This document shows, piece by piece, positions 1-35,527 of a stretch of DNA of 35,527 nucleotides. The translations under genes were made by a program, and so were the position numbers. The first letter of the stretch is position 1. Each line of letters begins with the position of its first letter. The DNA comes from Jimgerdemannia flammicorona (Eukaryota), in contig RBNJ01000250.1 in assembly GCA_003990765.1 (NCBI GenBank), positions 1-35,527 of the forward strand, given 5' to 3'. Under the pieces are notes generated by a model. It did not search any database, was not told the DNA's origin, and was given only the letters and a program-made list of their open reading frames with translations.

Positions 1-61
1 TTTTTTGCCATTCTGGCTGACCTTTCATGGGTACCCTCTTTTCAATTCCTCCTCACGAAAG

Positions 62-557
62 CGTACGGTGAGATAGGCAACCCTGAGGCCAAGATACCAG
101 GTATACGTCTCTCCACGCCGGGGCCAAGGCGTCGTTGAAGATATTCGTATGTTGTTTGTCTCTCCAAGCGTATGTGTTGTCCTCAAAAATCTTGTGAATC
201 GTAATCACCAGGCAACGCCACGCTGATATTTGAGATCGAGCTCATGAACATTGACCCCAACATTGAGTACGTCAATTTTATTTTATTTTTAGTCACCATC
301 ATTCCACGTCTCATCCGTACACTAACAACCATCTCTCCAGGAACCGCTATTCCAGCCTGACCAAACTGGTGCCGTACGTGCTGATCGCCTGCATCCTCTT
401 TGCGGCTTACCGCTTCCGGCGCTTTGTTACGATCCGCCGCGGCGCCGCGCAGGAGGACATCGAGTTCTCGGCGCTACACGATCATGTTGGGGGTGGGCTG
501 CTGGGGCGGGGCGAGGACGAGGACGAGGAGGGAAGAGCCGCGACTAAGCAAGATTAG
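62..557 (+). CDS. 3' exons of an FKBP-type peptidyl-prolyl cis-trans isomerase with C-terminal TM helix (exons 62-100, 212-266, 341-557; 5' part outside window)
   Basis: Splicing GT..AG introns 101-211 and 267-340 (branch ACTAAC at 321-326) gives (A)YGEIGNPEAKIP-GNATLIFEIELMNIDPNIE-NRYSSLTKLVPYVLIACILFAAYRFRR...TKQD*. AYG..G....IP.NATLIFE.EL is the FKBP domain C-terminal signature. CpG-rich and undamaged. Confidence 0.9.
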
Positions 558-3261
558 TGAAAAGGGAGCGTTGCGGAAGCTAATGGGTTGCTGGGATGAG
601 GTGAGGCGTGCGACGATGCTTGGAAGCTTGGCGAATGTGTAGGTATGTCAGCAAACTTCATTGTTGATGTAATAGCGTGAGTGGCAATTTTTTTCTGTGT
701 AGCTATAATCAATCTTTCTCAAAGTAAAAGAAGCACCAAAGACAGTATTGGTGCTTACGGTTTTCTTAACGATTAAAGAAATATACATTAAACATTTTTT
801 ATATTTATTTATTATTTTTGCAGTGGATATTATAATTGATATTATAATTATTATTGTCATTATTCTCTTATTTATTATATGACATAGTGTGTGAAGTATA
901 TGTTGATCATACAATTTTACAATTTACTTGCATTGTTATTAATATCTACTATACTTATATTTCTATCAAGGAAGGTATTTCTCCGATTGTATATTAATAT
1001 TATGTGTTTGAGCGTCGATCTTTGAGACAGGATGGGTTGATTATATCACGTGAATCGTGTTGCATACAAACTACGTTTTTATATCTTAAACTAGCTATAC
1101 ATATAATTACATATTTTGCGGATTACCGTATTGGCCAAATAGGGGGGTCGTCTCAAGCGGAGCGTGACGTCGCAACCTATTTAACTTAACATACTATCCT
1201 GTTTGTAACACAAATTCGCCCCCAAAAGATAGGCACGTAGATCCAATTATACTGAGAATATTGAACTGTTGTTTATTTAAATATGTTACTAAGATATTTA
1301 TACAAAATAAAAGAGACAAGTGCAGATAAGAAATATATAAATAAAAAATCGATTACCAATAATATCTACTGATTTTCACGGCTTACTGTCTTTCCTCATG
1401 GCTTACTGTCTTTCTTCTAATGAGAAGGGTGCTAATTTGCTCTGTTAATTCATCGATAAAGCTGCTGGCTTCACCAGCATTAATTTCCTCCATCCTCCAA
1501 TATGTATCTCGCACCTGCTCCATCATTTCATTTACTTGTTGTCTTCTTTTCTCTGCTTCTAATTCAGCTTGTGTTCGCTCTAGTTGAGGTATTTCAACTA
1601 GCTCGCGTCTTTCATAAATTTCATAACCGCATTCTGCAAACATTTGCTGAAAGTTTTTCCATGCTTCTGCTGTCAGCAATTTAGTGCCGTACATATGTTC
1701 ATGGAAGATATGCTTGCAAGGTAATAAATACTCATTGAAAAACTTGCAATAGTACTTCAGTGTTGTAAGACCAGGTGTTGACATTTTATCAGTCAATCTT
1801 TTTTCTACTGTCTGAGCTTCATTAGTAATTAGCCTTTGAATAGGAGTAGGAAACTTATGTATCTCTTGAAGAATATCAACAGATATACCAGCTACTGAGA
1901 GTTTGCTAGTACAAAACTCAAAAGCAGTATGTGCCACATTATTAAATTTTTTAGTATCTATGGCTTTAATCTTTTGACAAGTATCTATAATATTTAAAAA
2001 AAAAACTTACCAATTAAACCATATCTATCTGAAGAAGTTAAGGATTTAAGCTCACTATAATATGATTTTAATGGACTTATTAAAGTTACTTAAAGAAGAA
2101 GTAGACAGTACTATTGTGCTCAAAGTCTCTACATCTGAGTATTTTTTTTATAGTTTCTAGTTATATATTGTTTGATACTATCAAGAGAACATATTTGAAT
2201 AGCCTCTTATATAGCATCTTTACATCTAATTTGAGTTCTTCTATATATTGTACTAATCATTTTATTATAAGTTTCTTCATGATAAATTTTGCTAATCTAT
2301 ATATATATAATATATATAGTATATAGAATAATTTTGCATTTCATCTCTCTAGCTATAATTCTAGTACTTTAGTAATACTATTGGCTTCAATACTATTTTG
2401 ATCAGAAAGTATATAATATATATACCAGTTTAGAGCAAACCAATGAATTTTCTTTAATCCTTAAAAGACTATAATACTGTCTTTATTAGTAATAAAAAAA
2501 ATGTCTACCAATATTTCAGCATTCATATATATTATGAATATATAAGGTAAAGAGCCACTATCTCTACTTATTAGTTTTATGTATTGAATCAATAAGTGTG
2601 AGCTATCTATATCTTGTCAATTTTTCAAGTTACTCTTATTTTATAAAAGCAAAGCCTTTTGTAGATTGTAATATTGAGCTGAATTATTTATATTGAAAGT
2701 TTTTTTCTTGTAAAAATTTTAATATCTCTTAAATATCAGTTTCTAGAGATTTGTCACCAATAAGTGAAATATTTAATAGACTATATAATATTCATCACAT
2801 ATTTGCTATATCTTTTGAGTCAATTACTGAATATCTAAATTTTTACTAAATATATTTATAGTAAGCTTTACAACAGTCTTAACAATTGCTGGAGGAGTAT
2901 AGACTTTGCTGACTTCATTATTTATCAATTGTTTGATAATTTTTAAATATTTGACCATATCACTCTTATCAAGAGTATATGTATAATTTGGAGTATTATT
3001 GGTAAATATATCAATATATACTGTTTATATTGCAATTATAATTATAGTTCTGATTTTTGCAAAGCATATATATGTATATCTGAATTACAGATTGTTATCT
3101 TTTATCATTTTTCATTTACCACTTCTTCTTGATGAATACTGGACTCTTGGTGTTTGTTGAGATGACAAATCCAAATTTTAATCTGATCACTATTTGTCTA
3201 TTTACTTTTGGTAAAAGATGTTTAGACATTTGACACATAGGTCTATTAATTGTTAAATTTG

Positions 3262-3665
3262 TATAACATTTTAGTATAGTTTATTTCTTTTCTTTGTCCT
3301 TCTTCAATATTCTATAATCTTCTGATACTTTCCGAATACTTAGAAACCCTTTCTTGGTGCTGAGCATTCTCTAGTACTTATTTAGTTAGTCACTGATTGT
3401 CCTGGAAACTTGTAGAACTTTATTTGTCATCATTTATCATCTTTACCAAGAACTTTCCTCTTGGTATTTTCCTTTGATTTCTCAGATCCTTCTGGATCCT
3501 TTTTTCAGATCTTGTATAAATATTCCCTTTGTTCTCATAAATAAAGTCTTAGAATATTTTCTCCCAGAAATCCTTTGAAGAACACTTGAATCCTTAGTAT
3601 CTCTTTGAGCTACTTAGGACTACCAGAATTAGTTGCTTTCTCATTTAGAAACTAGAACCATTACA
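3262..3665 (+). repeat. 5' LTR of element 1
   Basis: T(A)TAAC...TTACA. Colinear without gaps with 8892-9295. TATAAATA at 3515-3522, AATAAA at 3540-3545. Confidence 0.97.
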
Positions 3666-3667
3666 CT

Positions 3668-3679
3668 TGGTAGCAGTGG
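3668..3679 (+). promoter_or_regulatory. Primer-binding site, probably initiator tRNA-Met
   Basis: TGGTAGCAGTGG lies 2 nt after the LTR. Element 2 has TGGTAGCAGCAG, implying ancestral TGGTAGCAGCGG. TGGTAGC is complementary to the ...GCUACCA 3' end of initiator tRNA-Met. Confidence 0.75.
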
Positions 3680-4779
3680 TGAAGTTACACCTAGCCTTAT
3701 CAAGATACCTCTCAAGATATCAGTCACAACACTATAGAGGATAATGGGTGGAACCCTTTATACAGTACCTATGGTCCAGGTAATGCCTCATATAATCAGT
3801 ACAATCAGCAAGAAGAGGAGGAACAGCAAAACCCTACTCAGTCGAATGGGGCTATCAAGAGTCTTTTGCAGACTGCATTAGCTCATATTGCTCAACTTCA
3901 AGAATGCATAGAAAGAAAGGAAAGTAAGGCCCCCACTCATATCTCTGCACCTCTACTGATATCAATACATCTGACAGCAGTCACTATCAAGCCTCAGAAG
4001 CCTGACACTTTTGATGGTCAAAGAGGAGGACTGTCTACTGATGCCTGGCTTTTCCAATTGGAGCAATATGGAGAACTGACCAATTTGGAAGAAGCAACAC
4101 TAGTCCAATTTGCTGCCACACTCCTCTAAGGGAATACCACAATCTAGTGGTGAAATCATGTCCAGAATACCAGATTCTCTGGCTGAATCAAGACCTGGGA
4201 CAAATTCTCTGATGCTATTCAAGGCCAATTCAAACCAGTCAATAGCACCAAGGCCGCATGAGACCATCTGGCAAATATCAAACAACTCAAGTCTATGTAA
4301 GCATACAATGCACAATTCCTGTCAATCCTGTTAGAATTACCACATGTCACTAAAGATGAGAAGGTTGACCAGTACATCTGAGATCTAAAAGGTCAATCCC
4401 AAGTTCATGTTGAACTAGAAGAATCCAAGGACCTGGATATAGCAATGAAAATTGCTGATAGGTTTGATGTCATCACCTATGGTCAATACTTTGAATAGAA
4501 GAGACTGCCTTTCAACAACAACAACAACTACAGAAGGGAGGAACCCAAAGTCAGAACTGTTGGACCTGCCTCTATGGACCTAGATACTATCAATAAGAGC
4601 AAGAAAGGCAAGCTGATACCTGAGGAAAAGGAGTGTCTCAAGAAGGCTGGAGCCTGCTTCTTTTGTCATCAGCCTGGTCACATTGCAACCAAATGTCCCA
4701 AGAAAACTGCCAAAAACCAAAGAGGATCCTGGTCCTGTCCAAAGACACTCAAGGTCAACCAGTTGAACAAGAAGTTGTA

Positions 4780-5187
4780 CTCAATTTCATACAAGTTAAC
4801 CCCAAGGCCCAGATCCCTTAAGTATAGTCAGAAGGAGCCATTGGTTTAAACCTTCAAGCAGTACAATAAGTCACTATTCTGGCACATGAAAGAAGGCTCA
4901 TTCCAACTGGTCTTTCAGTCGAAATCCCCAAGGAACATTATGCAAGAATTGTGCCAAGATCTAGCCTTAGTTTCAAGCACTCATTAGATATTGGTGCTGG
5001 AGTCATTGACCCTGACTTCTAAGGTGAAATACAAGTCCTGCTAGTCAATCACAAGAACCAACCATATACTGTCAATGAAGGTGACAGAATTGCACAGCTC
5101 ATTCTAGAGTAAGCTACCCTACCAGTCATCAAAGAAGTCACTAAGCTGTCTTCAACCAAGTGAGATCAGAAAGGCTTTGGTAGTACT
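4780..5187 (+). pseudogene. dut: Trimeric dUTPase domain inside element 1 polyprotein
   Basis: One frame: KAQIP..SEGAIGLNL (motif 1), IPTGLSVEIPKEHYARIVPRSSL (motif 2), GAGVIDPDF*GEIQVLLVN (motif 3), EGDRIAQLILE (motif 4), TK*DQKGFGST (motif 5). It continues in frame into the protease. Confidence 0.95.
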
Positions 5188-8100
5188 GACAAAGTTACAA
5201 GCATAGCCAAGAACTAAGCCTATTCAATACTTATCTTCAAAGGTCTAGTCAAGGGATAAGAGCTAGATGTTCTCATAGACAGTGGAGCTGTTGGGAACTT
5301 CATCAACAAGAACCTTATCAACAAGCTCAAGATTCTCACCAAACCAGCCAGCAAGAATAGTGGAGTTGTCACTGCAGATGGCATCACCTTACCAATTGAC
5401 TCAATTGCTGCTAAACTTTCCCTCAAGATCCAGAAGTATTGGGAACATTTAGATTTCAAGGTAGCATCACTAGGAGACTATGATCTGATCCTAGATAAAC
5501 CCTGACTTACATGATATAACCCTCAGATTGATTGGACCAAGAATGAAGTCACCTTGATTTAAGATGGAGCCAATATTACTATCAAGCCAGACAAGACTCA
5601 GACAAGAACCCCAATTGCTACCCTTTCAGTAATTCAGTTCAAGAAGGCCCTCAAGAAAGCTACCTGTGCCTTTGTGGTACTGATCCAACTAAAGAAAAAA
5701 GACAAGAAGCTATCAATTAGTGAAAGCATCAAGTTACTGCTGAACAAGTACAAGGATGTCTTCCCAGACAAACTACCTGGTCTACCATCTTCAAGAGATC
5801 ATGACCACAAAATCAAGTTAGTACCTGATGCAGCTATACCTAAGAAGAAAATGTACCACATATCTCCACTCAAAATTGAAGCAGTCAAGAAGGAACTCAA
5901 TGAACTCATTGAGCAAGGAGCCATTCAACCAAGCAAGTCACCCTTTGGCTCCCCAGTCCTATTTGTCAAGAAAAAGGATGATACTCTGTAAATGTGTATA
6001 GACTACTGTGTACTCAACAAGATTACAATCAAGAACTATTATCCACTACCACTCATAGATCAAATCTTTGATGCTCTCAAGAATGCAAAGTACTTCACCA
6101 AGATTGATCTCACCTCTGGGTATCACCAAATTCGAATCAAGCCAGAAGACATACCCAAGACTGCCTTTATGACACCCTTTGGACTCTATGAATTTCTAGT
6201 CATGGCCTTTGGTCTCACTAATGTGCCAGCAACCTTTCAAGACCTCATGCAAACCATCTTCAAGGATCAGCTCTATATCTTTGTACTTATGTACATTGAT
6301 GACATCCTGATCTTCAGTAGTACTGAAGAAGAACACCTCAAGTACATTGAACAAGTCCTCAAGATCCTCTGTGAGAACAAGCTCTATGCAAAGCTCAAGA
6401 AATGTGAATTTTTCAAGGATCAAGTCGAATACCTTAGACACATTGTATCAGCCAAAGGAATTCAAGTAGACCCAAGGAAAATACAAGTCATTGAACAGTG
6501 GCCTGTATCAATAAACCTTACTGAACTCAGGTCCTTCCTTGGTCTGGCTGGATACTACCATCAATTTGTCAAGAACTTCTCTGACATCACAGAATCTTTA
6601 ACAAATCTCCTGTGAAAAGAACCCAACTCTGATCTCTATGTCTCCTACATCTGGGATGCCTTCTATTAACAAGCTTTTCAAGAACTCAAGAACCACCTGA
6701 CCCATGCACCTGTCCTTAGAAACTTGAAGTTCACAGTCACTATAGATATATCTAACTTTGCCATTAGTGCAGTCATTTCTCAAGATGATGGTCAAGGACA
6801 TCGACCTATTGCCTTTGAGTCAAGAAAATTGTCCCCAGCAGAACAAAAGCTGGCTACTCATGAAAAGGAACTTCTGGCAATCATGTATGCCCTCAAGACC
6901 TAGTGATATTATCTAGAAGGAGTTAAGTTTGACATGATCACTAATCACAGGTCCCTTCAGTACATCAACACTCAACCAACCCTTTCTTGCCAACAAGCCA
7001 AGTGGAGTCAACTACTTCAGATCTTTACCCCAAACATCATCTATAAGTCTGGCAAAACTCTAGTTGTACCAGATGCACTTTCAAGGAGACCTGACCTTGC
7101 CGCAATTTTACAAGTCACCATGGCACCTGAATTCCTCAACCAGATCAAGAAGGCATATGAACAAGACTCTCTGGTTCTACAAAGGAACACCAAGGAATTC
7201 AAGGAAAAGTACACCATCAAGGACAACCTCATGTACTATCAAGACAAAGTATATATTTCTGCTAACCCTGAACTATGGTATAAGATTCTTTATAAACATC
7301 ATGACTCCCCACTAGCTGGCCACCTTGGAACTGAGAAGACTATCAAGAATATCCAATGAGACTACTACTGGCCAAACATGCTCAAGGAAATCAAGGAGTA
7401 TATCCAAAGCTGCGATCTTTACTAAAGAAACAAGTCAAGTAACCAAGCACCTACCAGTCTTCTACAACCCTTGTCAATTCTGACCAAGAAGTTCAAACAA
7501 GTCACAATGGACTTCATTGTGCAACTCCCACAAACCAAAACAGGCTATGATGCTATTGTTGTATTTGTGGATTATCTCACCAAGATTACAATCACCGAGC
7601 CAACCACAATCAATACTACTACCCCAGAAATTGCAAGAATCTTCTTCAAGACTGTCTTCTGTCATTATAGACTTCCCCAAGTAATTATCAGCGACCATGA
7701 CCCCAAGTTCACAAGTCACTTCTGGCAAGCACTCTTCAAGACCCTTGGAACCCAAATTGCTATATCCACTGCCTTCCATCCTCAAACTGATGGACAGACC
7801 AAGCGAATGAACAGAACACTTGAACAAATGCTCAGAAACTATGTGTCTTATGAGCAAGATGATTGGGACTACTACCTGACCTATGCTGAGTTTGCCTACA
7901 ACAATGCCAACCAATCATCAACTGGTCTTTCCCCATTTCAGCTACTTCATGGTCAAAACCCCAAGATCCCTGCGAGCCTAGTTCAATTCCAGCAATTCAG
8001 TCACACTCAAGTCCCTATAGCCCAGAACCTTATTGACAAAATGAATTCCCTTCTCAAGATCACCACTACAAACCTACAAAAGACTCAGCAATATCAAGCT

Positions 8101-8410
8101 AAGTATGCAGATAAGAAGTGGCAAGATGTCATATACAACATTGGTGATATAGTTCTACTCAAAGCTGACAACATCAAGGCTCAATCTCAAGTCAATTGCC
8201 AGTCAGCCAAATTTCAGCCCAAGTACCTTGGACCCTTCGAGATCACTGAGCAAGTCTCTACCTGGTCTTACCATCTCAACTTACCAATAACCATACATAT
8301 ACACCCAGTATTCCATGTATCATATGTAACTCAAGGCCTGGAATCAGTCACCCCCATACCCTGGCTGAATTCCAACACCATCAGCACCAGTCATAGTTAA
8401 AGACCATATC

Positions 8411-8560
8411 GAGTATGAAGTTGAGAAAATTTTAGACAAGTGAGTCCAATACTGTTACACAGAATATCTAGTCAAGTGGATGGATTACCCTGAATATAAT
8501 GCCACCTGAGAATCTGCTGCCAATCTCAAAAACTCCCAAGATCTCATCCAAGAGTTCGAG
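8411..8560 (+). pseudogene. Integrase C-terminal chromodomain, element 1
   Basis: EYEVEKILDK*V....EYLVKWMDYPEYNAT*ESAANLKNSQDLIQEFE. Confidence 0.93.
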
Positions 8561-8878
8561 TAAAAAGGAACTCATTGACTGTCCATGAGGTTCTCCTCTT
8601 AGATAGTAGATGACCTACTGTACTGATCAGGCACATTACACATTGGGGCTCTCTAAGGGATACAGTATCAGAAGCAAGAGATATAGGAGAACCCTATTAA
8701 TCCTACAACTAATGAGGTTTGAACCAGTTCTCATCTGATCAAGATAATACTTTGGCCCTCGCCTTATACAAGGATGGCCAATCCTTGGCAATGAGTCAGT
8801 ATATTTAATTTGAAGTTTCTTTTAGTCTTATTGTTTATTATATATAACTTTGAGAATTCAACAAGGACATTAATTCTT

Positions 8879-8891
8879 AAGGAGGGAGAGA
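8879..8891 (+). promoter_or_regulatory. Polypurine tract, element 1
   Basis: AAGGAGGGAGAGA directly before the 3' LTR TGTAAC. Confidence 0.9.
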
Positions 8892-9295
8892 TGTAACATT
8901 TTAGCATAGTTTATTTCTTTTCTTTGTCCTTCTTCAATATTCTACAATCTTCTGGTACTTTCTGAATACTTAGAAACTCTTTCTTAGTGCCAAGCATCCT
9001 CTAGTACTTATTTAGTTAGTCACTGATTGTCCTGGAAACTTGTAGAACTTTATTTGTTATCATTTGTCATCTTTGCTGAGAACTTTCCTCTTGACATTTT
9101 CCTTTGATTTCTCAGATCCTTCTGGATCCTTCTTTCAGATCTTGTATAAATATCCCCTTTGTTCTCATGAATAAAGTCTCAGAATATTTTCTCCCAGAAA
9201 TCTTTTGAAGAACACTTGAATTCTTAGTATCTCTTCAAGCTACTTAGGACCACCAGAATTAGTTACTTCCTCATTTAGAAACTAGAACTGTTACA
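8892..9295 (+). repeat. 3' LTR of element 1
   Basis: TGTAAC...GTTACA terminal inverted repeat, 404 bp. Confidence 0.97.
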
Positions 9296-9430
9296 ATTCG
9301 TTTACTGAGAGCTAAAATGGCTGCTATATATCAAAAGCTATATTTATATTTCCTTTATTATTAATATAGTTACCATTATAATAAACTGTCAGATATAATA
9401 ATATTAAGATATGATAGAATTGTGATAGTT

Positions 9431-9730
9431 AGTCAATCTAGAAGAAAACTAGATACTAATTGTTCTAATAATCATACTATTATTCAGATAATTTTCTAAT
9501 TTCTAAAAAGTGTTTTCTGTAGATGATGAACTATTTGGTCAGACAGTCAATAAATGTAATAGATTTATAATAATCAGTCAATTTAGAAAAGAACTAGATG
9601 TTAATTGTTCTAGTAATTATACTATTATTCAGATGAATCTCTAATTCCTAAATACCAATTAAAGAAAACTAGATACTAATTATTCTAGCAGTCATACTAT
9701 TATTTAGATAATTTCCTAATTTCTAAAAAA
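9431..9730. repeat. ~75-80-bp degenerate repeat, three copies (starting ~9431, ~9576, ~9656)
   Basis: Recurrent AACTAGATRYTAATTRTTCTAR...ATACTATTATTYAGAT...CTAATTYCTAAA core. Confidence 0.8.
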
Positions 9731-9857
9731 TATTTCCTAATTATAGCAATGATGAGATAGTGAACTGCTGAGCAATAATAGATGATAAAAAACTGCTGAG
9801 TAGTAATGATAGATAATAAAAAACTAGTAGACAATAATAGATAATAATATTACTGAG

Positions 9858-9926
9858 TAGTGAAGATATGGTCTTGAGGGATAGTGAAGATATAGTCTCA
9901 GAGAGCAGCAAAGATATAATCTTGGG
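9858..9926. repeat. Left part of 24-bp minisatellite split by LTR element 2
   Basis: About 3 units of (AAGATRTRGTCTYRGRGRRCAGYA-like), ending in TSD TTGGG. Confidence 0.8.
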
Positions 9927-10352
9927 TATAATAATTTCACAGTCATATTTAGTCTTAGTATATTTTCACATCTTTTAGTTAGTCTTTTCTTGTCATTTCT
10001 TAAATATTCTACTATGTTCCACTACCTTCTACTTGCTTAAAAACCTTCTCTCAGCACTCAGATACTACTAGAATATTCTTGTCTTTCCTTAGCATCAAGT
10101 ATCTTATCTTAGCTAGTCATGGAACCTTTTGGAATATTGTAGAATAGTATTAGTCAGCTTTACTGAGAACCTATTTCTTGATATTTCTCTTTCTTTCTAA
10201 GATCCTTCCAGATCTTTCTTTCAGATCATATATAAATATCCTTATTATTTATCTAAATAAAGCTTAGAATATTTTCTCTCAGAAATTCTTTAAAAATACT
10301 TGAACCTTTAAGTATTTCTCTAAGCTACTTTAGGCTAACTAGAACTGTTACA
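9927..10352 (+). repeat. 5' LTR of element 2 (426 bp)
   Basis: TATAATAATTTCACAGTC...GAACTGTTACA. Matches 15474-15938 except for a 39-bp deletion near the end. Confidence 0.95.
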
Positions 10353-10400
10353 CTTGGTAGCAGCAGTGTCATTATATCTTGTCTTATTAAAAAACCTTAT

Positions 10401-13400
10401 ATGAATTTGGAAACCAGTCACAAATAGTCATATGAATCTGAAATAATCCATGAAGAGTCAGTCTATCAGCCAGACCTCTCTGCTACAGAAGAAGTGAGAG
10501 AATCACAGCTCAACATAGAGAATATAATCAATGCTATAGTCTATCAAATCCAAGAACTTCAAGTATAACTAGAACAGCAGAAAATAAGAACTGTAAGTAC
10601 ATTACATTCTGCTATAGTATTATTAGTTTCAAGCCACTCAAGCCAGATACCTTCAACAGCCATTGAAGAGAGCTATCTATAGATACATGGATCTTCTAGT
10701 TAGACTAATACTTTGAGCTCACAAAAATGAAAGAAGACATATAAGTCCAATTTACTACTATACTTCTCTGAGAAAATGCAGCTATCTAATAGCATAATCA
10801 TATCATAGTTACCTCTATATACTTATATATATATATAAATCAGAGACTGGAAAGCCTTCAAGAGAGCCTTTTATAAGCAGTTCAAGTCTACTAATGCTAC
10901 CAAACTAGCCAGAGACAAGCTAGCAAACATTAAGTAACTCAAGTCTATACAAAGCTACAATGTACAATTTTTGTCAATTCTACTCAAGCTACTAGTGATA
11001 TCTGAGGACAAAAAGATAGACCACTATGTCTGAGGTCTGAAGAGAAATACACAAGTCAAGGTCAAGCTAGAAGAGCCCAAAAATCTTAATGAAGCCATGA
11101 GAATTACCAATAGGTTTGATATTATCACCTTTGGTAACTGCTTTGAACCAGAACACTACAAGAAGAACCACTTTGAGAACTGTCACAAGAATCAACCAAA
11201 GATAGTTGGTCTAGCACTAATAGACCTAGATACTATGAACAAAAAGAACACCAAGCTTACCCTTGAAGAAAAGGACTGCCTGAAGAAATCTAGAGCCTGT
11301 TTTTTCTATTGTCAAACAGAATACATTGCAACCAAATATCCTAAGAAGACTAGTAAACTCTCAAGATCAGTCACCATATTGTTCAAAGATACATCTGTCA
11401 ACCCCACTACTAGTCAACCTAAGCTTAAGATCAAGAAGCTTCATCTGAAAGCCCAGACCCCTCAATATCAAATAGAAGAAGTCATTGGTCTTAACCTATA
11501 CTCTGTCAAACAAGTTACCATTCCAGTCAAGGGCCAAACTCTAGTATCTACTGGAATTGCAGTTCAATATTCTGAAGAACATTATGCCAGAATTGCACTA
11601 CAATCAAGACTTAGTGTCAAATATTATTTAGATATATGTAGGTACTAGTATCATTGACCCAGACTTTTAAGGACAAGTTCAAGTTCTGCTTATTAACCAG
11701 AAGGATCAAAACTATACAGTTAAGAAAGGAGACCAAGTTGCACAAATGATTCTAGAAAAAGCCAGTCAACTCAAGATTACAGAAGTCCAAGAACTCTCTG
11801 AAACCCAATGAGATCAAAAAGGTTTTGACAGTACTAATCAAGTAGCAAGTCTTAGTGAAAATTAAGCTCAAGCTATGCCCATTTTCAAAGGCCTAGTCAA
11901 AGGAAAAGAAGTTTAAGTACTCATAGACAGTAGAGCTACAGAGAACTTCATCAATCAGAATCTCATTAAAAGCCTCAAGATCCTTACCAAGCCTAATAGT
12001 ATAGTTACTATAGATGGTACTCTGTACTCTATTGAGTCAATTGCCACCAAACTACCCATTAAGATCCAGAAATATTGGGAATGAGTAGACTTTGAGATTG
12101 CACCACTAAGAGATCATAACCTGATCTTAGAAAAACCCTGACATATGAAATATAATCCAGACATTGATTGGTATAAGAATGAAGTTACTCTACTTCAAGA
12201 TAGAGCTAATATCACTATTAAGACAGACAAAACCATGAGTAAGACCCAGATTGTAACACTGTCAGCTATATAGTACAAGAGAGTACTCAAAAAGATAATA
12301 TATATCTTTATTGTAATAGTCCATTCCAAGAAATAAGACAAGAGACTATCAGTCAATAAAAGTATCAAGTTACTGCTAGAAGAATTCAAGGATGTCTTTC
12401 CAGACAAGCTATCTGGTCTACTGCCTACATGAGAAGTTTATCATGAAATTGAACTGACCCCAGAAGCTGTATCATCCAAGAAACACATGTACTATATATT
12501 GCCACTTGAAATAGAAGCAGTCAAAAAGGAACTAGAAGAACTACTTATATGAGAAGCCATTCAGTCAAGCAAATCTCCTTATGGCTCATCAGTCTTATTT
12601 GTCAAGAAGAAGGATGGTATCCTATAAATATACATAGACTATCATACACTCAACAAACTCACTGTCAAGAACTGCTATCTACTACCCTTGATTGATCAAA
12701 TCTTTGATACTCTCAAGAATATCAAGTACTTCACTAAGTTAGATCTCATGTCAGGATACCACCAATTCAAATCAAGCCAGAAGACATTTCCAAGACTATA
12801 TTTATGACTCTCTTTGGACTCTATGAATTTCTGGTCTTAGTATATAGTCTCACTAATGCACTTACTACATTCTAGACCTTGATGAATAAGATATTTAAGA
12901 ATCAACTATTTATTTTCCTGTTGATATATCTTGACAATATCCTGATCTTTAGTACAAAAAGAAGAATACCTCAAACACATTTGTATAGTTCTGGAGATTC
13001 TGTGAAAATACAAGCTTTATGCCAAGCTCAAGAAGTGTGAATTCTTTAAAGAACAAGTTGAATATCTTGGCCACATTGTCTCTGTATAAGGAATTTAAGT
13101 AGATCTATACAAGATAGAAGCAATTAAAGAATGGCCCATTCTGTCAAACCTTACAGAACTCTGATCCTTTCTTGGTCTAGCTGGCTACTATTACTGCTTT
13201 GTCAGAAACTTCTCTGATATTACCAAGCTACTGACTAATCTCATAAGAAAGGCCTTGTACTCAGACTACTATGTACCCTATATCTGAGACCTCTTCTGTC
13301 AATAAGCCTTTCAAGAACTCAAGAACCACCTGACCCATACTCTAGTCCTACATAATGCAGATCAAGGCCTAAAATTCACAGTCACTACTGATGCATCAAA

Positions 13401-15145: not shown

Positions 15146-15473
15146 GCAAAATACATTGCCCAATCTCTGTAGTGACTTTCTTGGATTGTTGATGACCTAT
15201 GGCAATAATTAGTGCCTTATGCATCAGAAGTTTACTTTGGGACCTAAGAATTAGTAAAACATTTAATAAATAAGAAGTCCATCGAAATGAAGCTACTAGC
15301 TAGATTTGAACTCCTCCCAGTTAGTTAGTCTGATAATAGACCCTCTGTCCTATACAAGGATGACCAATCTCCACCAATATACCAATAAAGATTTGAGAAA
15401 TTTTGGTTAAGTATATCTAGTCTTATGTTATCTAAGAACTTAATGAGGACATTGGTTTTTAAGGAGAGAGAGA

Positions 15474-15938
15474 TATAACAATTTTACAGTCATATTTAGT
15501 CTTAGTATATTTTCACATCTTTTAGTTAGTCTTTTCTTATTATTTCTTGAATATTCTATTATATTCCACCACCTTCTACTTGCTTAGAAATCTTCTCTCA
15601 GTACCCAGACATTACTAGAACATTCTTGTCTTTTCTTGGTACTAAGTATCTTGTCTTAGCTAGTCATGAAACCTTTCAGAACATTATAGAATAGTATTAG
15701 TCAGCTTTGCTGAGAACCTATTTCTTAGCATTTCTCTTTCTTTCCAAGATTCTTTTGGATCTTTCTTTTAGATTATATATAAATATCCTTATTCTCTGTT
15801 TGAATAAAGCTCAGAATATTTTCTTCCAGAAATCCTTCAAGAATACTTGAATCTTTAAGTATCTCTCTAAGCTACTTTAGATCAATTAAAACTTCCAGAT
15901 TTAGCTACTTCCTCTTTAAAGAAATTAGAACTGTTACA
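15474..15938 (+). repeat. 3' LTR of element 2 (465 bp)
   Basis: TATAACAATTTTACAGTC...GAACTGTTACA, following the PPT. Confidence 0.95.
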
Positions 15939-16340
15939 TTGGGAGTGGTAAAGATGTGATCTTGAAGAGCAGTGAAGATACAGTCTCAGAGGGTGGTAAA
16001 GATGTGATCTCATGGGACAGTAAAGATGTAGTCTTGGGGGACAGTAAAGATGTAGTCTTGGGAGATAACAAAGATGTGGTCTTGGGAGGAGTAAAGATGC
16101 AGTCTTAGAGGATAGCAAAGATATAGTCTCAGAGAGGAGCAAAGATGTAGTCTCAGAGGACAGCAAAGATGTGGTCTTGGGGAGCAGTAAAGATGTGGTC
16201 TTAGAGAGCAGTAAAGATATAGTCTTGGGGGGCAGTGAAGGAGAGAGAGTGAAGATGTGGTCTTAGAGGGCAGTAAAGATATTCTTAGAGAGTAATAAAG
16301 ATATAGTCTCAAAGATAGCAAAGATATAGTCTCAGGTGGT
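15939..16340. repeat. 24-bp minisatellite, roughly 16-17 units (right part)
   Basis: Unit e.g. AAAGATGTAGTCTTGGGGGACAGT. The minus strand gives an 8-aa repeat such as LPPETISL / LSSETTSL. Confidence 0.9.
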
Positions 16341-16407
16341 AGCAATAGAGATATTGTACAGTTTTAGTAGTGCTGAATAAAAAAAAATAATACCACCTAG
16401 TAGATAT

Positions 16408-16411
<4 letters not shown>

Positions 16412-16464
<53 letters not shown>
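16412..16464 (+). repeat. A53 homopolymer
   Basis: Direct reading of the sequence. Confidence 0.95.
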
Positions 16465-16466
<2 letters not shown>

Positions 16467-16544
16467 GCTAAGTACAGTGACTAATTATAAAATAATAGCT
16501 ACAATAGATGATAGAGGAGGTTTGAATAGGTGAGGTATAGGCGA

Positions 16545-17165
16545 GTGAGATAGAGAGGAGGTGGGGGTAGAGAGAAGGTATAGATAGATAGAATAGAATA
16601 AAAAAAAAAAAAAAAAAGATAGATAGAATAGAGAGAAGAAAGAGAAGAAATAGAAGAAGATTTGGAGATTCAGAAGAGTGGAAAGAAGGAGAATAATACT
16701 CTGAATATTATTTTCCCTCTCATTCACAATTATATTTTCTACTATAAAAATTGCTAGCTAACCTATCTAGTATCTATTCTCTATAGTTAGAGACAATTTA
16801 CTAATATATAACAATTTACTACTGAGTGAGAATAGAAGTGTAGAGAAGACAGAATAGAGAGGAGGTGTGGGTGGTGGGGTAGAGAGGAGGTGTGAGTGAG
16901 TGGGATAGGGAGGAGGAGGAGAAGGAGGAGGAGAAATGAGAGAAGATTCAGATAAGTAGAGAGGAGGTTTAGATGAAGTGGGAAAAAGAACAATTCCTAT
17001 TCAAATATTATTTTTCCTCTCATTTATAATTACATTTTCTACTATAAATATAATCTATCTAGTATCTGTTCTCTGTAGTTGGGAGAACAATTTATTAGTG
17101 TGAGATAATTTACTATGGATAATAATTTACCACTGAGTAATCAGACAAGTATAGAGAAAGCAGAT
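16545..17165. repeat. Diverged tandem duplication of ~310 bp (about 16545-16860 and 16860-17165)
   Basis: Both copies show a GA-rich tract, then AATATTATTTTYCCTCTCATTYAYAATTAYATTTTCTACTATAAA, then CTATCTAGTATCTRTTCTCTRTAGTT. Boundaries approximate. Confidence 0.75.
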
Positions 17166-17236
17166 ATTAAAGTGCTTAAATCTTATATAAGGGAAGAATT
17201 CAAATGAAGGAGGTCATGTTGGAGATATATTACCAT

Positions 17237-20200
17237 ACACCTTTCTTTGATAATATTTGAGTTATATAATTTTCTAATAATACTCACAACTTCATTTTTG
17301 GAAAAAAGATACTAACAATATGGTAACTGAAGAGCATTCTGAGATATATACTGAGTAGGATAACCCTAGTATATTCAACTGACAGTATGTGGGAAGAAGT
17401 CATGACTTGGGGGGAAGTATGAGGGGCTTGCTGACTAGCAGATATAGAAGAGAAGAAAGTAGTACTAAGGAACAGGAGATAGGGAGAATAAGCTTTACAG
17501 ATAAGATGAAGGGAGATAGACTGATGATGACGATTGAACTGGAGGGCTGGCTGAGAAAGAGCAAGAAGATAGTAAGAGTTATCAGTTCTGGGAGTATAGC
17601 AAAGGCAGCAGAGCTGGGAGAGTAGTGGTTGGAAAGAGTGAGACTGCTGATGGTAAAGAGACTACTAATTTGGAAATAAATCCAGATGTGACAGTTGATG
17701 GAGAATCTGGACAGAAGAAGGGTATAAGGCCTGGAGATCTGGCAGACAGTATGATAGGACTAATGGCAGCACTATTACTCAAGAAATCAAGGTCAGAATT
17801 TGCTATCATATTGTGTTTCCAAGGCTTGGTAGTAATAATAAGAATGATTTTGAGGCTCCTGGTCCAGGAGGTAAAGGGGGCTACTTTAGTAAAGTTTTTG
17901 AAGAGACTGGAAGGGGTGGAGATCAGCTTCAAGAAGAAAGAGATACTACTAGAGGTAATAGAGAAGGGAGTAGTGGTGGTGGGGGGGGGGTGGTAATCTC
18001 TATGGCCTGGTACTTACACTGGGATCTCTGAGTAATATAGCTGATAGTACTGGATATTCCTATAGTATTGAAGGAAATAGCTAGAAGATTGATTGTAGAG
18101 ACCATCAAAAAATATAGGGAGATTGTGGATATTGGGTTTAGGGTCTGAGAAGATACCAAATTCCAGACAGAAGATGTGGACATCAGAGTGTAACTAGTAG
18201 ATAAAGAGAATATGGGGAAGGTGAGAGACTGGCTGATAGTTCTTAAGTAGGGACCTAGAGTGCAAGGTCTTATGAGTAAAAAGGATGATAGAGGAGGAAG
18301 AGAACTTGCTGGAAGCATTGAAAGATCTAGCTAGAGCTATGGAGAGAGGAAGATTAGTCTAGAAGGAGTACAAGGCCAAGACAGTGGTAGAGATTATTAA
18401 TGATAAGAAGGTATAATTGAATTGAATGACCTGGGAGAGGATACAGAGAAGGCATATCTAGAAGGAGCTACTAGCTAAGTTGAGAAGAGGGATAGCTGGG
18501 GGGACTACCACTAAAGAGATGGAGTTGAAGATAAGTGCTTGGACAGGAGAGAAGAGAGTGGTATAAGAGGAGGCTCTAGGAGGGAGAGAGGACACTGGGC
18601 AGAGTATCATTGTAGAGGATGCAGAGATGATAGAGGGGGAGCACATATAGTATGGGATATCAGATGGAGCTGGAAATGAGGACAAATTGCAGAATGTGCT
18701 GGAGGAGAATTGGGATAAGTCAGTGAGAAGGAATGCTGAGAGGGAATAGATAGAAGGGAGGTTGAGAGTGGCTCAGAGGGTGGCAGAGGCTGAGGCTAAG
18801 AAGAAATGGCTATAGAAAATGCTGGAGAATGTAGCAGCTGAGAAGCTAGGGGGAGAGGACTTCCAGGTACTGAGTGAGGTAAAATCTTGCATAGGGAGGA
18901 GATGTTTCAGAAACTCTGAGATGAGATAATAGTAGCACTGTTAGAGACCAAGAAGTATCAGATTGATGATGCCAGAGAGGCAGTACTTATGGCAGTTGTG
19001 AATGATAGAATAGAATACATATGAGGCCTAAGGAAAGAGCTGGCAAAGTAGCAGGTGGTATATAAGAAATACTATACAGAGATGAAGATAGTAGATGGAG
19101 CAGATTGTCAGGAGATCTTAGAGACATTGGAGGCTCAACAGAGAGAGACTGATGAACTGGAGGCAGAAAGAAATCTGGATATTACTGGAGATACAGTAAG
19201 TATGAAATTATAGAGTAAACTGTAGTACTTCAAATAACATTATTCAATATAAACAGTATAACTAAAATCTTATCTCTGAATTTCAATGGACTCTGAGAGA
19301 TAGTGAGGTAGCAAAATATCTTTGGATAGCTAAAAGAGACTGAAGCTAATTTGTTCTTACTGTAGGATATTGAGTGTAATAGAGATCTGAATAGTCAGAA
19401 CTGAACAAAATAATGGGGTAGAGTAGCTATTTGGTAAAGATATGGGCATTTTGATTAGAAAAGGCAAGGGAGACTTGAGAGATATTGAATATTGGGGGAG
19501 TAGGGTAATATGGGGAGTCTGAAAGAGGTCAGACTAGAGGCCTTTGATAGTTGGGTCTTGTTATTGCCTAGTAGATAGAGGGGAGAGGGTAGAATGGATA
19601 TAGAAGCTATAAGAGTCTAGAGCATTAGTGGAGACCAGAATTGATTATCTAGGGGAGACTTTAATATAATATATAATAGAAAGATAGACAGAACTAATAG
19701 AGATAGAGAGATAGTAGGCAGGAGTGGGGGTATAGAAGACTGAGAGAAAGTTGAATGTTTGAGCTCATTAGGAGATGTAGAGAGGCTTAGATGGGGGGAT
19801 TGAAGAGTCTTCATTCACTGGATAACAGGGCTAAGATTGACTGGATATTGACTATAGATTGCTGGGGAATTGATATCTAGAGGTCTTTGGAGACTGTTTG
19901 ATATCTATGTTCAGATCACTGGAGTCTTTTAGGAGAGAGGTGTTTGAGAGTAGTGGGGAGTAGCCTAGACATTGGTGACTAAATACTTCCTTACTAGAAG
20001 AGGCTACTCTATAGGAGACATGGGTAATAGACATTAGCTCTAGGATTCTTGACTGGAGGGTAGTAGGCCTGGGGATTGGGAAGTACTAGATATGATTGAA
20101 ATCTAAGGTACAAAGATACTGAGGGGAGGTAGGAAGGATATAGAGTGCTCAGAGGAGAAAGCAGATGAGGTGGGCCTTCCAGAGGTTGGAAGGATTGTTG

Positions 20201-21407
20201 GTATCCTGGGCAGATCTAGTAAATAGAGGAAAGAAAGGAGATTGGCATATACAGCAGACCAGACTAGAGGTGGAGGAGCTAAAGGACATTCTGTGGCAGA
20301 AGGAGGAGCTACAGATTAGAGGCATGGCAGCCAGACTGTAGTGACAGGAATTGAAAGAGAGAAAGCAACTTACTAAATTTTTGTCATAGATGCTACAGAT
20401 AAGAAGAGTTCAGCAGCAGTGGAAGGGAGTCTTGGATGAGGCTAGGGAGTTGGTAGTTGGGATGTTAGAGATACTGGACCAGTTGAGTAGGTGGTGGAGA
20501 TATCTATAGAGTGAGGAGGATGGAGGAGAGAAAGTATTGATAATTGACAAATACTTGGAAGAATGGTACTCTGACCCAGTGATAGGCTTAGGCAATCTTG
20601 GTACTGCTGTCCAAAGAGAGGAGATTCATAAGTTCTGTGGACAATGAGCTCTGAGACTGTGCCAGAGAAAGATGGACTACCATAGAATTTCTGGAAATAG
20701 ATAGCAGGAATTGAGTTGGCTCTGAAGGAATTGATAGAGATGTATGATGAAGTAATAGATTCTGGGACATGGATTGGAGGGCAGAGGCTGGGTCTTATGA
20801 CTCTACTGTTTAAGAATAAGGGGAGGAGAGAGGAGTGGAAGAACTGGAGACTGATTATACTTCTAGATATAGATCACAAGTTAGTCACAAAGATACTGGT
20901 GGCTAAGCTGTAGAGAGTGGTCCAGCAGGTCCTGGGGGCTGAGCAGAGAGGGTTTGTAGAAGAATGTCTTATTAGAGATGGAACAGTCTGAGCACATAGC
21001 ATTATTGAGGATACTTGCACTACTGGGGTAGATAGATAACTGGTTTTTCTGGACCAGGAGAAGGCCTATAACAAGGTCTAATAAGTGTGATTAGAGAGGA
21101 TGCTACAGTATATTGAGGTTCCCTATAGAGTCTAGAGGATCTTGATCAGTCTGCTAGAAGAGAGTTAGGTGGTTATCATAGTGAATAGATATAGAGGTGT
21201 TTCTTTCTCTCTAGGCAGAAGAGTGCCACAGGGGGATCCACTGTCTCTGATTTTATATATACTATCCCTGGAGCTGCTTTTGGATAGGATATGGCAAAAG
21301 GTGCCTTTGCTGATAATATAGTAGTTAAGCTGGAGTCAGTTGTAGACATTGAAGTATTAAAAGATACAGTAGAGTGATATGAGACATACTTAGATGCTAA
21401 GCTCAAT
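17237..21407 (+). mobile_element. LINE A (L1/Tx1 clade), 5'-complete, heavily decayed, interrupted in RT by LINE B; remainder expected beyond the window
   Basis: 5' end ACACCTTTC, ORF1 ATG at 17320, ORF2 from ~19249 with APE motifs (LNFNGL, GDFN, SDHW) and RT motifs (KNWRLIILLDIDHKL, FLDQEKAY, PQGDPLS, AFADN). Breaks off at ..DAKLN. Confidence 0.9.
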
Positions 21408-22149
21408 AACCTTTCACTGATAATATTCAAGTGATATAAGACTCAGACAACACTTTCTGCAACATTTTTGATAAAAGAAAACTAGCAATATGGATAGTAA
21501 TGAGTATACTGGTGAGTATATTAGCTAGGGGGGCAGTAGTACCTTCAACTAGCAGTATGTCAGGAGGAGGTAAGGAGATGGTTTGGGGATACTAGAGCCT
21601 CCTATGGTTGGTTGTAGTACTGATATTAGAGGGTGGGGCAGATTGAGGCAACAAGGAGAGGGAAGGATGACCTTTGCTAATAAGGTCAAGATGGGGAGAA
21701 TGGTATTGGGTCTGAATAGTTGGTTGAGACTGGGGAAGGCATTGACAGCTTCAGCTAGGGGACAGAGAGGGGCTCCCATGAGAGGGGCAGACAGTAGGAA
21801 GGAGAGAGAAGTAGGGGCTAGAGATGTAACTGCTGATAGCATGGTGACTGGAGATCTGAAAAAAAATCCAGATGTGACAACTATTGGTAGATCAGGACAG
21901 GAAGAGAGCACGAGACCTGGGGATCTGGCAGATGGTATGACTGATATAGTGTCAACACCATTACTCAAAAAGTTGAGGTCAGAATTTACTGTCACATTGT
22001 GCTTCTAAGGCTTGGCAGTAACTGTAAGGATAATTTTGGGACTGGTGATACAGGAGGTGAAGGGGGTAGCTTTAGTGAAGTTTTTGAAGGGGAAAGAAGG
22101 GGTCAAGGTTGGATTTGAGGAAGAGGCATTGTTGTTGGAGGCTGTGGAG

Positions 22150-22168
22150 AAAGGGGTAGTAGTGGGTA
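22150..22168 (+). repeat. Target-site duplication of LINE C (second copy 28056-28074)
   Basis: (AAA)GGGGTAGTAGTGGGTA occurs before the 5' end and directly after the poly(A) tail; 16-19 bp. Confidence 0.95.
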
Positions 22169-22259
22169 CAAGTCGGACATCTCTTTCCAGTATCATTCAG
22201 GTTACACAACCTTTGGAAGGCACTTTCAACATCATTTTTGGTGAAAAGAGACTAACAAC

Positions 22260-24283
22260 ATGGCAACTGACAGGCAACCTGAGGTGCATACTGGGCAGGG
22301 TGGCCCAAGTACTTTCGACTGGCAGCAGGTGGGGAGGGGTCCAGGCCTGGAGGGGGTATGAGGGGCCTGCTGGCAGGTGGATGTGGAAGGGGTGGAGGAG
22401 GTGATAGAGAATCAGGTTCTGGGAGGACAAGCTTCATAGAGATGGTGAAGGGGAGACAGCAGGTGTCAGGGCTAGAGGGCTGGCTGAGGAAGGGCAAGGA
22501 GACCAAGAAGGTGACAGTGCAGGGGGGAGCGGCCCTTGGAAGGGGGGGCAGTAGAGCTGGAGAAGTAGTGGCTGGGGGGGGTGTGACTGCTGATGGTGAT
22601 GGGACTGTCAATCTGGAAAAAAATCCAGATATGATGGCTGGTGGCGAGGCTGAGCAGCTGAGGCTTAGAAGACAAGGGGACTTAGCGGATAGTGTAATGG
22701 GTCTGGCGGTGGCCCCATTACTCAAAAAATCGATCTCAGTATTTGCAGTCACACTGTGCTTCCGGGGCCTGGCAGTGATGGTGAAAATAGTACTGGGGCT
22801 CATCGCTAAGCAGGTGGCAGGAGCTACGTCAGTGAAGTTTTTGAAGGGACTGGAAGGAGTGGAGGTGGGTTTTGAGGAGGCAGTACCACTGGAGGAGGCA
22901 CTGAAGGTTGGATTGGTGGTTAGAGAGGTGTGTATTCTAATAGTGCAGTGCTTGAAGTGGGACCCCAGGGTGGTCCAACTGCTGGTGAAAGGAGTGCCAA
23001 TAGTGATAGCGATGGAGACAAGAAAGAGAGTTGAGGATTTCATAGCAGAATATGGAGAGGTGGTGGATATTGGGTTCAGGGTCTGGGAAGGGACCTCACT
23101 CAGGACTGGTGATGTGGATGTAAGAATTCAGCTGGCTGGGAAAGAAGCCACTGGGAAGGCAAGGGACTGGTCTTTGGCGATGGTCTGGAGAGCGATCCTG
23201 TGTAAGGTGACAAGGGTGAAGGGAAGTGAGGAGGAGGAGAAGGATTTATTGGAAGCACTAGAAGAGCTGGGTGGTGCTGTAGAGAGGCAAGCAAAGGCTT
23301 GGGAGGCTTTTGTAGAGTCGACACACTTGGAGGTGGTGGATGGAAAGTGGATTTGAGTGACCAAGGAGCAGTGGGAAAGGGCTCAGGGGCATAAGAGACA
23401 GAAAGAACTACTGGCCAAGCTGGATAGCAGACCACTGGGAGAGGCGAGTAAGGTGAAGGGCACAGGGGGAGCCAAAGTGAGTGTCTGGGCTAGCGAGGGG
23501 GAGGGGAAGGACAAGAAGGAGGCGGGAGAGAACAAGGAGAAGGCTAGGAAGGACCCATATGCTGATGGTACACTGGAGGTTTGGGAGGAGGACTGAGAGG
23601 GTTCTCCTACCCCTACCCCTCTCATCAGGCATGGCCTGGCTTCCCAGAACAGGGTGGTAGAAGATGTGCCAATGCAAGGGGCCCAGAGGGTGCAATTCGG
23701 AGTTCCGGAGGTAGTATATGGGGGACAGGTGGTGGCGGCTGGTGAGGAGGAACTGGTAGATGTCCTGGAGGTATGAGATGAGTCTGCAAGTGCTGGAGCT
23801 AACACCACAATGTTGGATGGAGGGAGGCCAGTGACTCTGGGGGAGAAAGAGGTGGGGAACTTGCTTTGGATATACCAGATGATGAATAACCTGATGGCAG
23901 AAGAGTTGGGAGAGGTGGACTTGCAAGTGATGAGTGATGAACATTGGGCAGGGATACTGCAGGGGGATGGCATAATGAAGGCATTGAAGGTGGAAATTCT
24001 TGTGGTGTACCTGGAGGAGGAAGGGTATGAGGTGGATAAGGAGAGGGAGATAGAGATAGTGGTTGTTGCTAGAGAGAGGGCTGAATACTGCTGGAACAAG
24101 CATCATGGACTACAGCTCTGACAGGAGGCGTACATCGAATACTGAGAGGAGTTCGAGGAGAAGGCAGATGGAGAGATGAATGAACTGCTGGCTGGATTGG
24201 AGGCTCAGAGGGCAGAAGAGGAGGAGGTGGCTGCGGAACATAATCTGGACATGGCACAGGAGGAGATGAGCATAGAGCAGTAG
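22260..24283 (+). pseudogene. LINE C ORF1 (~675 aa; Gly/Arg-rich N-terminus, RRM-like core, acidic helical C-terminus)
   Basis: MATDRQPEV...RGLLAGGCGRGGGG; VQLLVKGVP...IAEYGEVVDIGFRVWEGTSLRTGDVDVRIQL. One frameshift near 22350 and a few TGA stops. Homologous in all four LINEs. Confidence 0.85.
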
Positions 24284-24316
24284 AGACTGATTGATGACAT
24301 AACATATTTCATCATT

Positions 24317-27961: not shown

Positions 27962-28028
27962 TGGGTAGGAATGATGTATATTTATTCATAGACTGGTAAT
28001 AAAGGTGGAGTCCAAGTGACTATAAAAG

Positions 28029-28061
<33 letters not shown>

Positions 28062-31782: not shown

Positions 31783-31813
31783 TGGACTCATTTGAAACTA
31801 TATAATCTTTCCT

Positions 31814-35465: not shown

Positions 35466-35527
35466 TGTGAGGAGGTGTTTGTAATTATCAATAGACTAGT
35501 AATAAATGGTGAAGTCCGCATGATTAT

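Follow-up and report, generated by a model that had tools for sequence, protein, structure and literature searches.

The occurrence of dUTPase domains in LTR retrotransposons is scattered, and the described systems closest to the locus analyzed here are chromodomain Gypsy elements of fungi. In Postia placenta, such elements carry dUTPase at three positions, including the amino terminus of Pol in PosPlaTy3-3; the excerpted text of that study also cites earlier reports of dUTPase in Phanerochaete chrysosporium and in the Tuber melanosporum element Tmt1 and proposes independent acquisitions (Novikova et al. 2010; PMC2864245). Excerpts of two later studies place the domain between the protease (PR) and the reverse transcriptase (RT) in rotifer elements (Rodriguez et al. 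2017; PMC5408684) and also in planarian elements (Arkhipova and Yushenova 2019; PMC6431247), and the text excerpted from a preprint on Entomophthora muscae lists PF00692 as enriched along with retroelement protease families. In betaretroviruses, the dUTPase is described as a protein made trans-frame from gag and pro and containing nucleocapsid (NC) sequence (Hizi and Herzig 2015; PMC4531489).

The window, by which we mean the whole stretch of DNA analyzed (35,527 nucleotides), contains two elements that can be set beside these systems. Our preferred reading, to which we assign a probability of about 0.85, is that they are dead copies of two related chromovirus families whose full-length, in-frame dUTPase was maintained by selection, with protection of the cDNA as its proposed role, before the copies were inactivated by transition-driven mutation. 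According to the excerpted descriptions, PosPlaTy3-3, the Phanerochaete elements and Tmt1 are, like the window elements, chromodomain Gypsy LTR retrotransposons with a dUTPase in Pol, and in PosPlaTy3-3, likened here by description only, the domain is likewise found at the Pol amino terminus, upstream of PR. Novikova and Blinov (2008) and Riccioni et al. (2008) are said to be the earlier sources for the Phanerochaete and Tmt1 dUTPase elements.

Since the Postia elements are in print (PMC2864245), neither the combination of dUTPase and chromodomain nor the position upstream of PR is new. The first-pass annotation had considered the combination, together with tRNA-Met priming, possibly undescribed in this host group; novelty as such we do not uphold: fungal dUTPase chromoviruses were printed in 2008 to 2010, with PosPlaTy3-3 carrying the domain upstream of PR. 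When the domains of 51 public retroelement-linked dUTPase proteins were mapped with Pfam, six metagenome polyproteins had the dUTPase upstream of PR, in the Gag-dUTPase-PR layout of the window elements (P0058, P0079, P0301, P0340, P0341, and P0355). It followed PR in 21, lay between RT/RNase H and integrase in 15, and preceded RT, with PR undetected upstream, in 7; a single protein had it after a chromodomain and another before three CCHC knuckles.

The rotifer (Juno, Vesta, and TelKA) and giant planarian Gypsy elements resemble the window elements in being LTR retrotransposons with a dUTPase but have it between PR and RT; for the rotifer elements, the excerpts describe no chromodomain. Betaretroviruses (MMTV and MPMV) have in common with the window elements the order NC, dUTPase, PR and a presumed role in uracil exclusion; their dUTPase is described as a trans-frame product, whereas it lies in one continuous ORF in the relatives of the window elements, which are themselves Ty3/gypsy elements with a chromodomain and without room for env. 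The nearest dUTPases and the same layout were found in P0058 and P0301 (Gag-CCHC-dUTPase-PR) and in P0130, P0382, P0383, and P0385, whose ORFs, unlike those of the window copies, are intact. The locus extends the scattered record of LTR retrotransposons with dUTPase by two decayed examples and, through the metagenome relatives, by an apparently abundant lineage from soil, and it offers a clean case of a dUTPase under demonstrable selection at the NC-PR junction. The questions that it touches, namely, cDNA protection in particular host cell states and repeated gains of dUTPase by retroelements, were already raised in the literature of 2008 to 2017.

Anatomy of the two elements

The features of both elements are collected in Table 1. 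Their Pfam matches follow the same order (Ty3 capsid/Retrotrans_gag, CCHC, dUTPase, RVP_2, RVT_1, RNase H, integrase, SH3_Tf2-1, and Chromo), which identifies both as chromoviruses (Ty3/gypsy, Metaviridae); the Chromo match of element 2 (E 7.7e-4) is below the cut-off. Chromodomain polyproteins were the proteins nearest to the window elements, and a protein atlas search with the integrase ORF gave mixed eukaryotic taxa. TG..CA ends, a primer-binding site (PBS), and a polypurine tract (PPT) were found as in LTR elements generally, together with a 5-bp target-site duplication for element 2 only.

Table 1. Positions of the features of elements 1 and 2 in the window
Feature	Position	Strand	Evidence and remarks
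Element 1 5' LTR	3260..3665	+	starts TGTA..ACA, ends TGTTACA; blastn self-match 3264-3665 vs 8894-9295, 92.8%
Element 1 primer-binding site, TGGTAGCAG	3668..3676	+	2 nt past the LTR; 9 letters match published tRNAMet(i) PBS
Element 1 gag (Ty3 capsid-like domain; CCHC knuckle 4655-4696, CFFCHQPGHIATKC)	3989..4714	+	frame of 3602; PF19259 E 4e-10, PF03732 E 4e-9
Element 1 gag / dUTPase-pol frame break	4711..4712	+	A run that differs in length by 2 nt from that of other copies
Element 1 dUTPase domain	4780..5199 (Pfam span 4804-5187)	+	PF00692, PDB matches, motif alignment; six in-frame stops
Element 1 aspartic protease (DSGA)	5215..5559	+	dUTPase frame; PF08284 E 2e-7
Element 1 reverse transcriptase and RNase H	5965..7023	+	PF00078 E 3e-29, PF17917 E 4e-28
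Element 1 integrase (zinc finger, core, SH3_Tf2-1)	7267..8328	+	PF17921 E 7e-19, PF00665, PF24626 E 1e-14
Element 1 chromodomain	8414..8563	+	PF00385 E 7.6e-10, frame of 3602; another frame break near 8400
Element 1 polypurine tract, AAGGAGGGAGAGA	8879..8891	+	read from sequence
Element 1 3' LTR	8892..9295	+	self-match and end reading; LTR pair ~92% identical
Element 2 5' LTR	9927..10352	+	target-site duplication TTGGG at 9922-9926
Element 2 primer-binding site, TGGTAGCAG	10355..10363	+	same word as element 1 PBS
Element 2 dUTPase	11424..11862	+	N half (Pfam 11451-11633) read in gag frame; C half (11638-11835) shifted by one frame; two stops
Element 2 3' LTR	15474..15938	+	followed by TTGGG 15939-15943; PPT 15461-15473; LTRs 86-88% identical

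The flanks of element 1 differ (AAATT at 3255-3259 and ATTCG at 9296-9300), and its missing target-site duplication may be due to decay or to recombination between two copies. The insertion of element 2 split a 24-bp minisatellite (9855-9922 and 15943-16290), duplicating the TTGGG.

The features of a betaretrovirus or endogenous retrovirus (ERV), namely, capsid and protease of retroviral families, an env gene, and gag-pro-pol spread over three frames, were not found in these elements. The capsid is Ty3_capsid, the protease is RVP_2, and gag and dUTPase share one frame in the relatives; only about 315 nt separate the end of the element 1 chromodomain from the PPT, which leaves no room for env.

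Both elements had been annotated as primed by tRNA-Met, which is reasonable at the 9-nt level: in the excerpts consulted, the nine letters of TGGTAGCAG open the PBS complementary to tRNAMet(i) that is given in PMC1797187, and the TGGTAGCAGAGC PBS of PMC5445492 starts with the same nine. A search of the whole window returned no tRNA or Rfam family.

The dUTPase domain, its decay, and its intact relatives

Reading element 1 over 4780-5199 in the frame of 4702, with its six stops masked as X, gave a translation of 140 residues that matched PF00692 over nearly the whole profile (E 3.3e-33; 114.6 bits against a curated Pfam cut-off of 22 bits; profile positions 2-128 of 129), which is far above chance. 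In a comparison with the PDB, eukaryotic cellular dUTPases of solved structure and those from large DNA viruses matched the domain at full length (E 6.5e-33 to ~1e-26). The protease, RT, RNase H, and integrase of element 1 are all read in the dUTPase frame, so that the domain is, as first annotated, in frame with the protease and masked by stops (four TAA, one TAG, and one TGA). The diverged counterpart that had been placed at 11424-11835 in element 2 was recovered as two Pfam matches, split by a frameshift and scoring 47.5 and 25.3 bits.

The claim that all five trimeric dUTPase motifs are present at 4780..5187 also holds, with some of them damaged by decay. Aligned with named cellular enzymes, the five motifs of the window dUTPases are recognizable, among them the Asp of motif 3, the Gln of motif 4, and the GFGST arm of motif 5; all five motifs are intact in P0385 and P0058. 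In both window copies, the Asp of motif 1 has become Asn and a stop stands in place of the Arg in motif 3 as well as in motif 5, and motif 2 is changed in element 2. An alternative genetic code in which the stops specify Gln was considered and rejected: two of the stops fall on the invariant Arg of motifs 3 and 5, and the relatives have ordinary sense codons.

Motif 3 reads DPDF in both elements, confirming the Phe that the first-pass annotation had pointed out in place of the usual Tyr. Among 494 proteins scanned, 386 had Tyr and 25 had Phe, two of the latter being the window translations; Phe also occurs in the chromovirus polyprotein P0009 and in the ERV-like P0225, and Tyr occurs in P0385, P0058, and P0301. 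Phe was rejected as a lineage marker on these counts and on the Tyr of P0385, the nearest relative of element 2, and from these alignments it qualifies as a minor recurrent variant.

Both window copies are dead, as shown by their stops, frame breaks, and broken catalytic motifs. The pol frame of element 1 contains 19 stops in 1233 codons, six of them within the dUTPase, and the pol region of element 2 has at least five frame changes. The dUTPase stops sit where intact relatives have sense codons that a transition converts to a stop, and the decay is almost purely transitional, with 31 transitions against 2 transversions between the LTRs of element 1 and 56 against 3 between those of element 2. 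Depletion of CpG is restricted to the repeats, with observed/expected ratios (O/E) of 0.07 in element 1, 0.01 in element 2, and 0.09 in the LINE-like region on the right, and spares the left flank (1-3259; 0.85). CpG sites account for 9 of the 31 LTR transitions in element 1 and for 4 of the 56 in element 2, so that CpG is not their main site; half of the 56 lie in a CpA/TpG context. The repeat-induced point mutation (RIP) indices, TpA/ApT and (CpA+TpG)/(ApC+GpT), were 0.82 and 1.38 in element 1 and 1.06 and 1.18 in element 2, set against classical (Neurospora-type) thresholds of >0.89 and <1.03. Taken together, these patterns suggest a repeat-targeted deamination of cytosine, either linked to methylation or RIP-like, which would hint at a fungal host without proving one.

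Compared by tblastn, the intact relatives P0130 (178 amino acids) and P0382 share about 85% and 79% identity, respectively, with element 1; for P0385, the intact protein closest to element 2, the identity with that element is 67-70%. The CCHC knuckle and the dUTPase share one ORF in the metagenome proteins P0130 and P0382, and P0058 holds Gag, CCHC, dUTPase, PR, and RT within a single ORF. In the window, the alignment with P0130 follows the gag frame to 4714 and the pol frame from 4714, four soil-metagenome contigs are without the 2 letters of the A run in element 1 (4711-4712), and in element 2 the N half of the domain is read in the gag frame. The ancestral Gag-Pol was thus encoded in one ORF, with no programmed frameshift. 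The heptamer TTTAAAC (4846-4852), where gag stops, was weighed as a candidate -1 frameshift site and dropped, as it is outside the gag zero frame, the dUTPase begins upstream of that stop, and the relatives have a single frame.

In one soil metagenome, the family was both diverse and abundant, with 1275 short contigs spread over all 30 bins of element 1. Their differences from the window are mainly T>C (144) and A>G (87), the mark left by decay of the window copy itself. A search of sequencing runs gave sampled-word shares of 0.05-0.12 in soil metagenomes and in two organisms, with no RNA run among the listed holders, and a metagenome scan for loci encoding relatives of P0130 found none. Two small runs of a related organism, guessed to be RNA, showed a depth in the thousands over parts of the LTRs (3462-3865 and 9118-9296) and near zero over the coding region, and some of their contigs bridge LTR to LTR past the interior (e.g., 3575 to 9226), which suggests solo LTRs or LTR-only transcripts.

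Selection on the domain, its proposed role, and its origin

The internal regions of elements 1 and 2 are 67% identical and differ by 975 transitions and 702 transversions, which marks the two as truly separate families. Codon pairs were taken from a protein-guided alignment, and the identical aligned nucleotides recut in the two other frames served as the control. Over 134 codons of the dUTPase, pN was 0.259 and pS was 0.645, a ratio of 0.40 in the true frame against 0.97 and 1.41 in the shifted frames; this ratio is only rough, because dS between the families is saturated (~1.3-1.5). The corresponding values were 0.26 against 1.15 and 1.17 for RT and 0.33 against 0.86 and 1.24 for the whole of pol. 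The dUTPase was therefore under purifying selection between the families, rather weaker than that on RT and similar to that on RNase H and the integrase SH3 domain, in agreement with the claim that it was selected in both families; the dN/dS near 1 that would speak against this claim was not seen.

These values bear directly on the idea that the dUTPase is a passenger, a piece of a host gene transduced or inserted by chance and without a role for the element. Cellular-size dUTPases (~55-60% identity) are as similar to the window domain as are the dUTPases of other retroelements, as a passenger would allow. However, the domain occupies the same position and frame in both families, whose internal regions differ at 33% of sites, it shares an ORF with the CCHC knuckle in the metagenome relatives, its pN/pS departs from the values of ~1 in the control frames, and the family is abundant in soil; these findings contradict a passenger, which we regard as the least credible of the explanations weighed here.

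Our preferred reading, that of a selected and formerly active enzyme, would work as follows. The elements would have encoded a single Gag-Pol polyprotein comprising capsid, CCHC nucleocapsid, dUTPase, protease, RT, RNase H, integrase, and chromodomain. By analogy with retroviral and cellular dUTPases, the domain would have been packaged with Gag-Pol into the particle, where it would have formed a homotrimer and hydrolyzed dUTP to dUMP and pyrophosphate beside RT. Less uracil in the cDNA would then mean less damage by uracil excision and fewer G-to-A mutations, with a benefit mainly in cells having little dUTPase of their own, a cell state that is conjecture. After insertion, a transition-only process restricted to repeats (cytosine deamination, methylated or RIP-like) would have inactivated both copies, and such mutation would account for the stops that mask the dUTPase.

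It is conceivable, but improbable, that the domain was instead kept for a noncatalytic role, as a spacer or in assembly or signaling, as proposed for some dUTPase-like proteins of phages and herpesviruses. The lineage has the motif 5 sequence R-D-Q-K-G-F-G-S-T, compared with R-G-x-x-G-F-G-S-T-G in cellular enzymes, and Leu in motif 1 in place of the cellular Tyr or Ala, and close RT relatives live without any dUTPase. Against such a role, intact relatives keep all five motifs, including the Asp of motif 3, the Gln of motif 4, and the Phe of motif 5; the identity to active enzymes is 45-60% over the full domain; and purifying selection spans the whole of it.

The origin of the domain was approached with two trees. 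The dUTPase tree comprised 115 rows (6 of the window family, 50 mapped retroelement proteins plus P0157, 13 named cellular enzymes, and 45 randomly sampled short proteins); it omits P0303, P0384, and multidomain proteins, and P0157 was placed as PR-dUTPase-RT by reading its sequence. The six window-family rows grouped together (SH-aLRT 91), with P0058 and P0301 as their sister (94), giving eight rows in all. Proteins of other layouts and the remaining upstream-of-PR proteins were scattered among cellular enzymes in this tree, which has few columns and 55 of 112 forks unresolved. The RT-RNase H tree, with 129 rows, joins the two elements as sisters (100) and places them beside polyproteins without dUTPase. 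The closest RT relatives having both Gag and PR (P0008, P0011, and P0007) carry no dUTPase and have 65-68 residues from CCHC to the protease DSG, compared with 188 in P0058; the domain is thus dispensable for close kin. The RT of P0058 falls in a neighboring subclade of the free tree, and a clade of elements 1 and 2 with P0058 was not rejected by the AU test (log-likelihood difference 4.3, p 0.40). One ancestral gain followed by loss in relatives is possible, as is transfer of the module between chromovirus lineages.

The first-pass annotation had proposed an independent capture converging on the betaretroviral layout. Its statement of the layout stands, the order NC-dUTPase-PR being that of betaretroviruses, and the independence of the capture becomes a plausible reading. 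The dUTPases of FIV, EIAV, and MPMV matched element 1 at E values of 2e-15, 3e-10, and 2e-11, and cellular and large-DNA-virus (including chlorovirus) dUTPases did so at 1e-30 to 1e-33; as the retroviral enzymes are far more distant than the cellular ones, descent apart from betaretroviruses fits better, and a source apart from retroviral dUTPases is plausible from these comparisons. No cellular donor stood out among the best cellular-size matches, which have 55-60% identity over the domain and include nematode, mite, yeast, algal, and acidobacterial enzymes.

Common ancestry with the betaretroviral NC-dUTPase-PR module, with no independent capture, would predict the identical order of domains that is described in excerpts of PMC4531489, and the ERV-like P0225, which also has DPDF, shares with the window family a 24-row cluster of the dUTPase tree whose support is weak (82). 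P0225 does not, however, join the window family in that tree; the MPMV, FIV, and EIAV matches fall far short of the ~1e-30 of cellular and chlorovirus enzymes; the RT, capsid, and chromodomain of the elements are those of Ty3/gypsy; and the closest RT relatives are without a dUTPase. We consider such shared ancestry very unlikely.

On the preferred reading of two dUTPase-bearing chromovirus families, we tentatively entertain a further step, which we think has a less than even chance of being right. The elements, together with P0130, P0382, P0383, P0385, P0058, and P0301, could form a chromovirus clade, so far without a name, whose host is a soil eukaryote other than the fungi with described elements of this kind, with one dUTPase gain between NC and PR, the enzyme maybe acting as an NC-dUTPase fusion. 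If so, a lineage of Metaviridae would have arrived by true convergence at the solution of the betaretroviruses.

Other repeats and flanks in the window

In the left flank (1-3259), no Pfam family was found in six frames at E 0.01; this AT-rich flank holds an ORF of 184 amino acids on the minus strand (1383-1937), itself without a Pfam match at E 0.01. Between the two elements, a 75- to 95-bp AT-rich repeat occurs three times within 9414-9729 (9414-9507, 9559-9652, and 9656-9729), with copies 80-89% alike. The right part of the window (16300-35527, plus strand) consists of head-to-tail non-LTR (LINE-like) copies about 7.5 kb apart, 23739-27732 and 31238-35236 being 74% identical, with an RVT_1 domain near 25900-26620. 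Poly(A) runs lie at 16412-16464, 16600-16617, and 28029-28058, and the next copy begins directly after the last of them. The plus strand of this region is 34% G and 13% C, with a GC skew of +0.33 to +0.57 over 19 kb and the low CpG O/E (0.09) given above.
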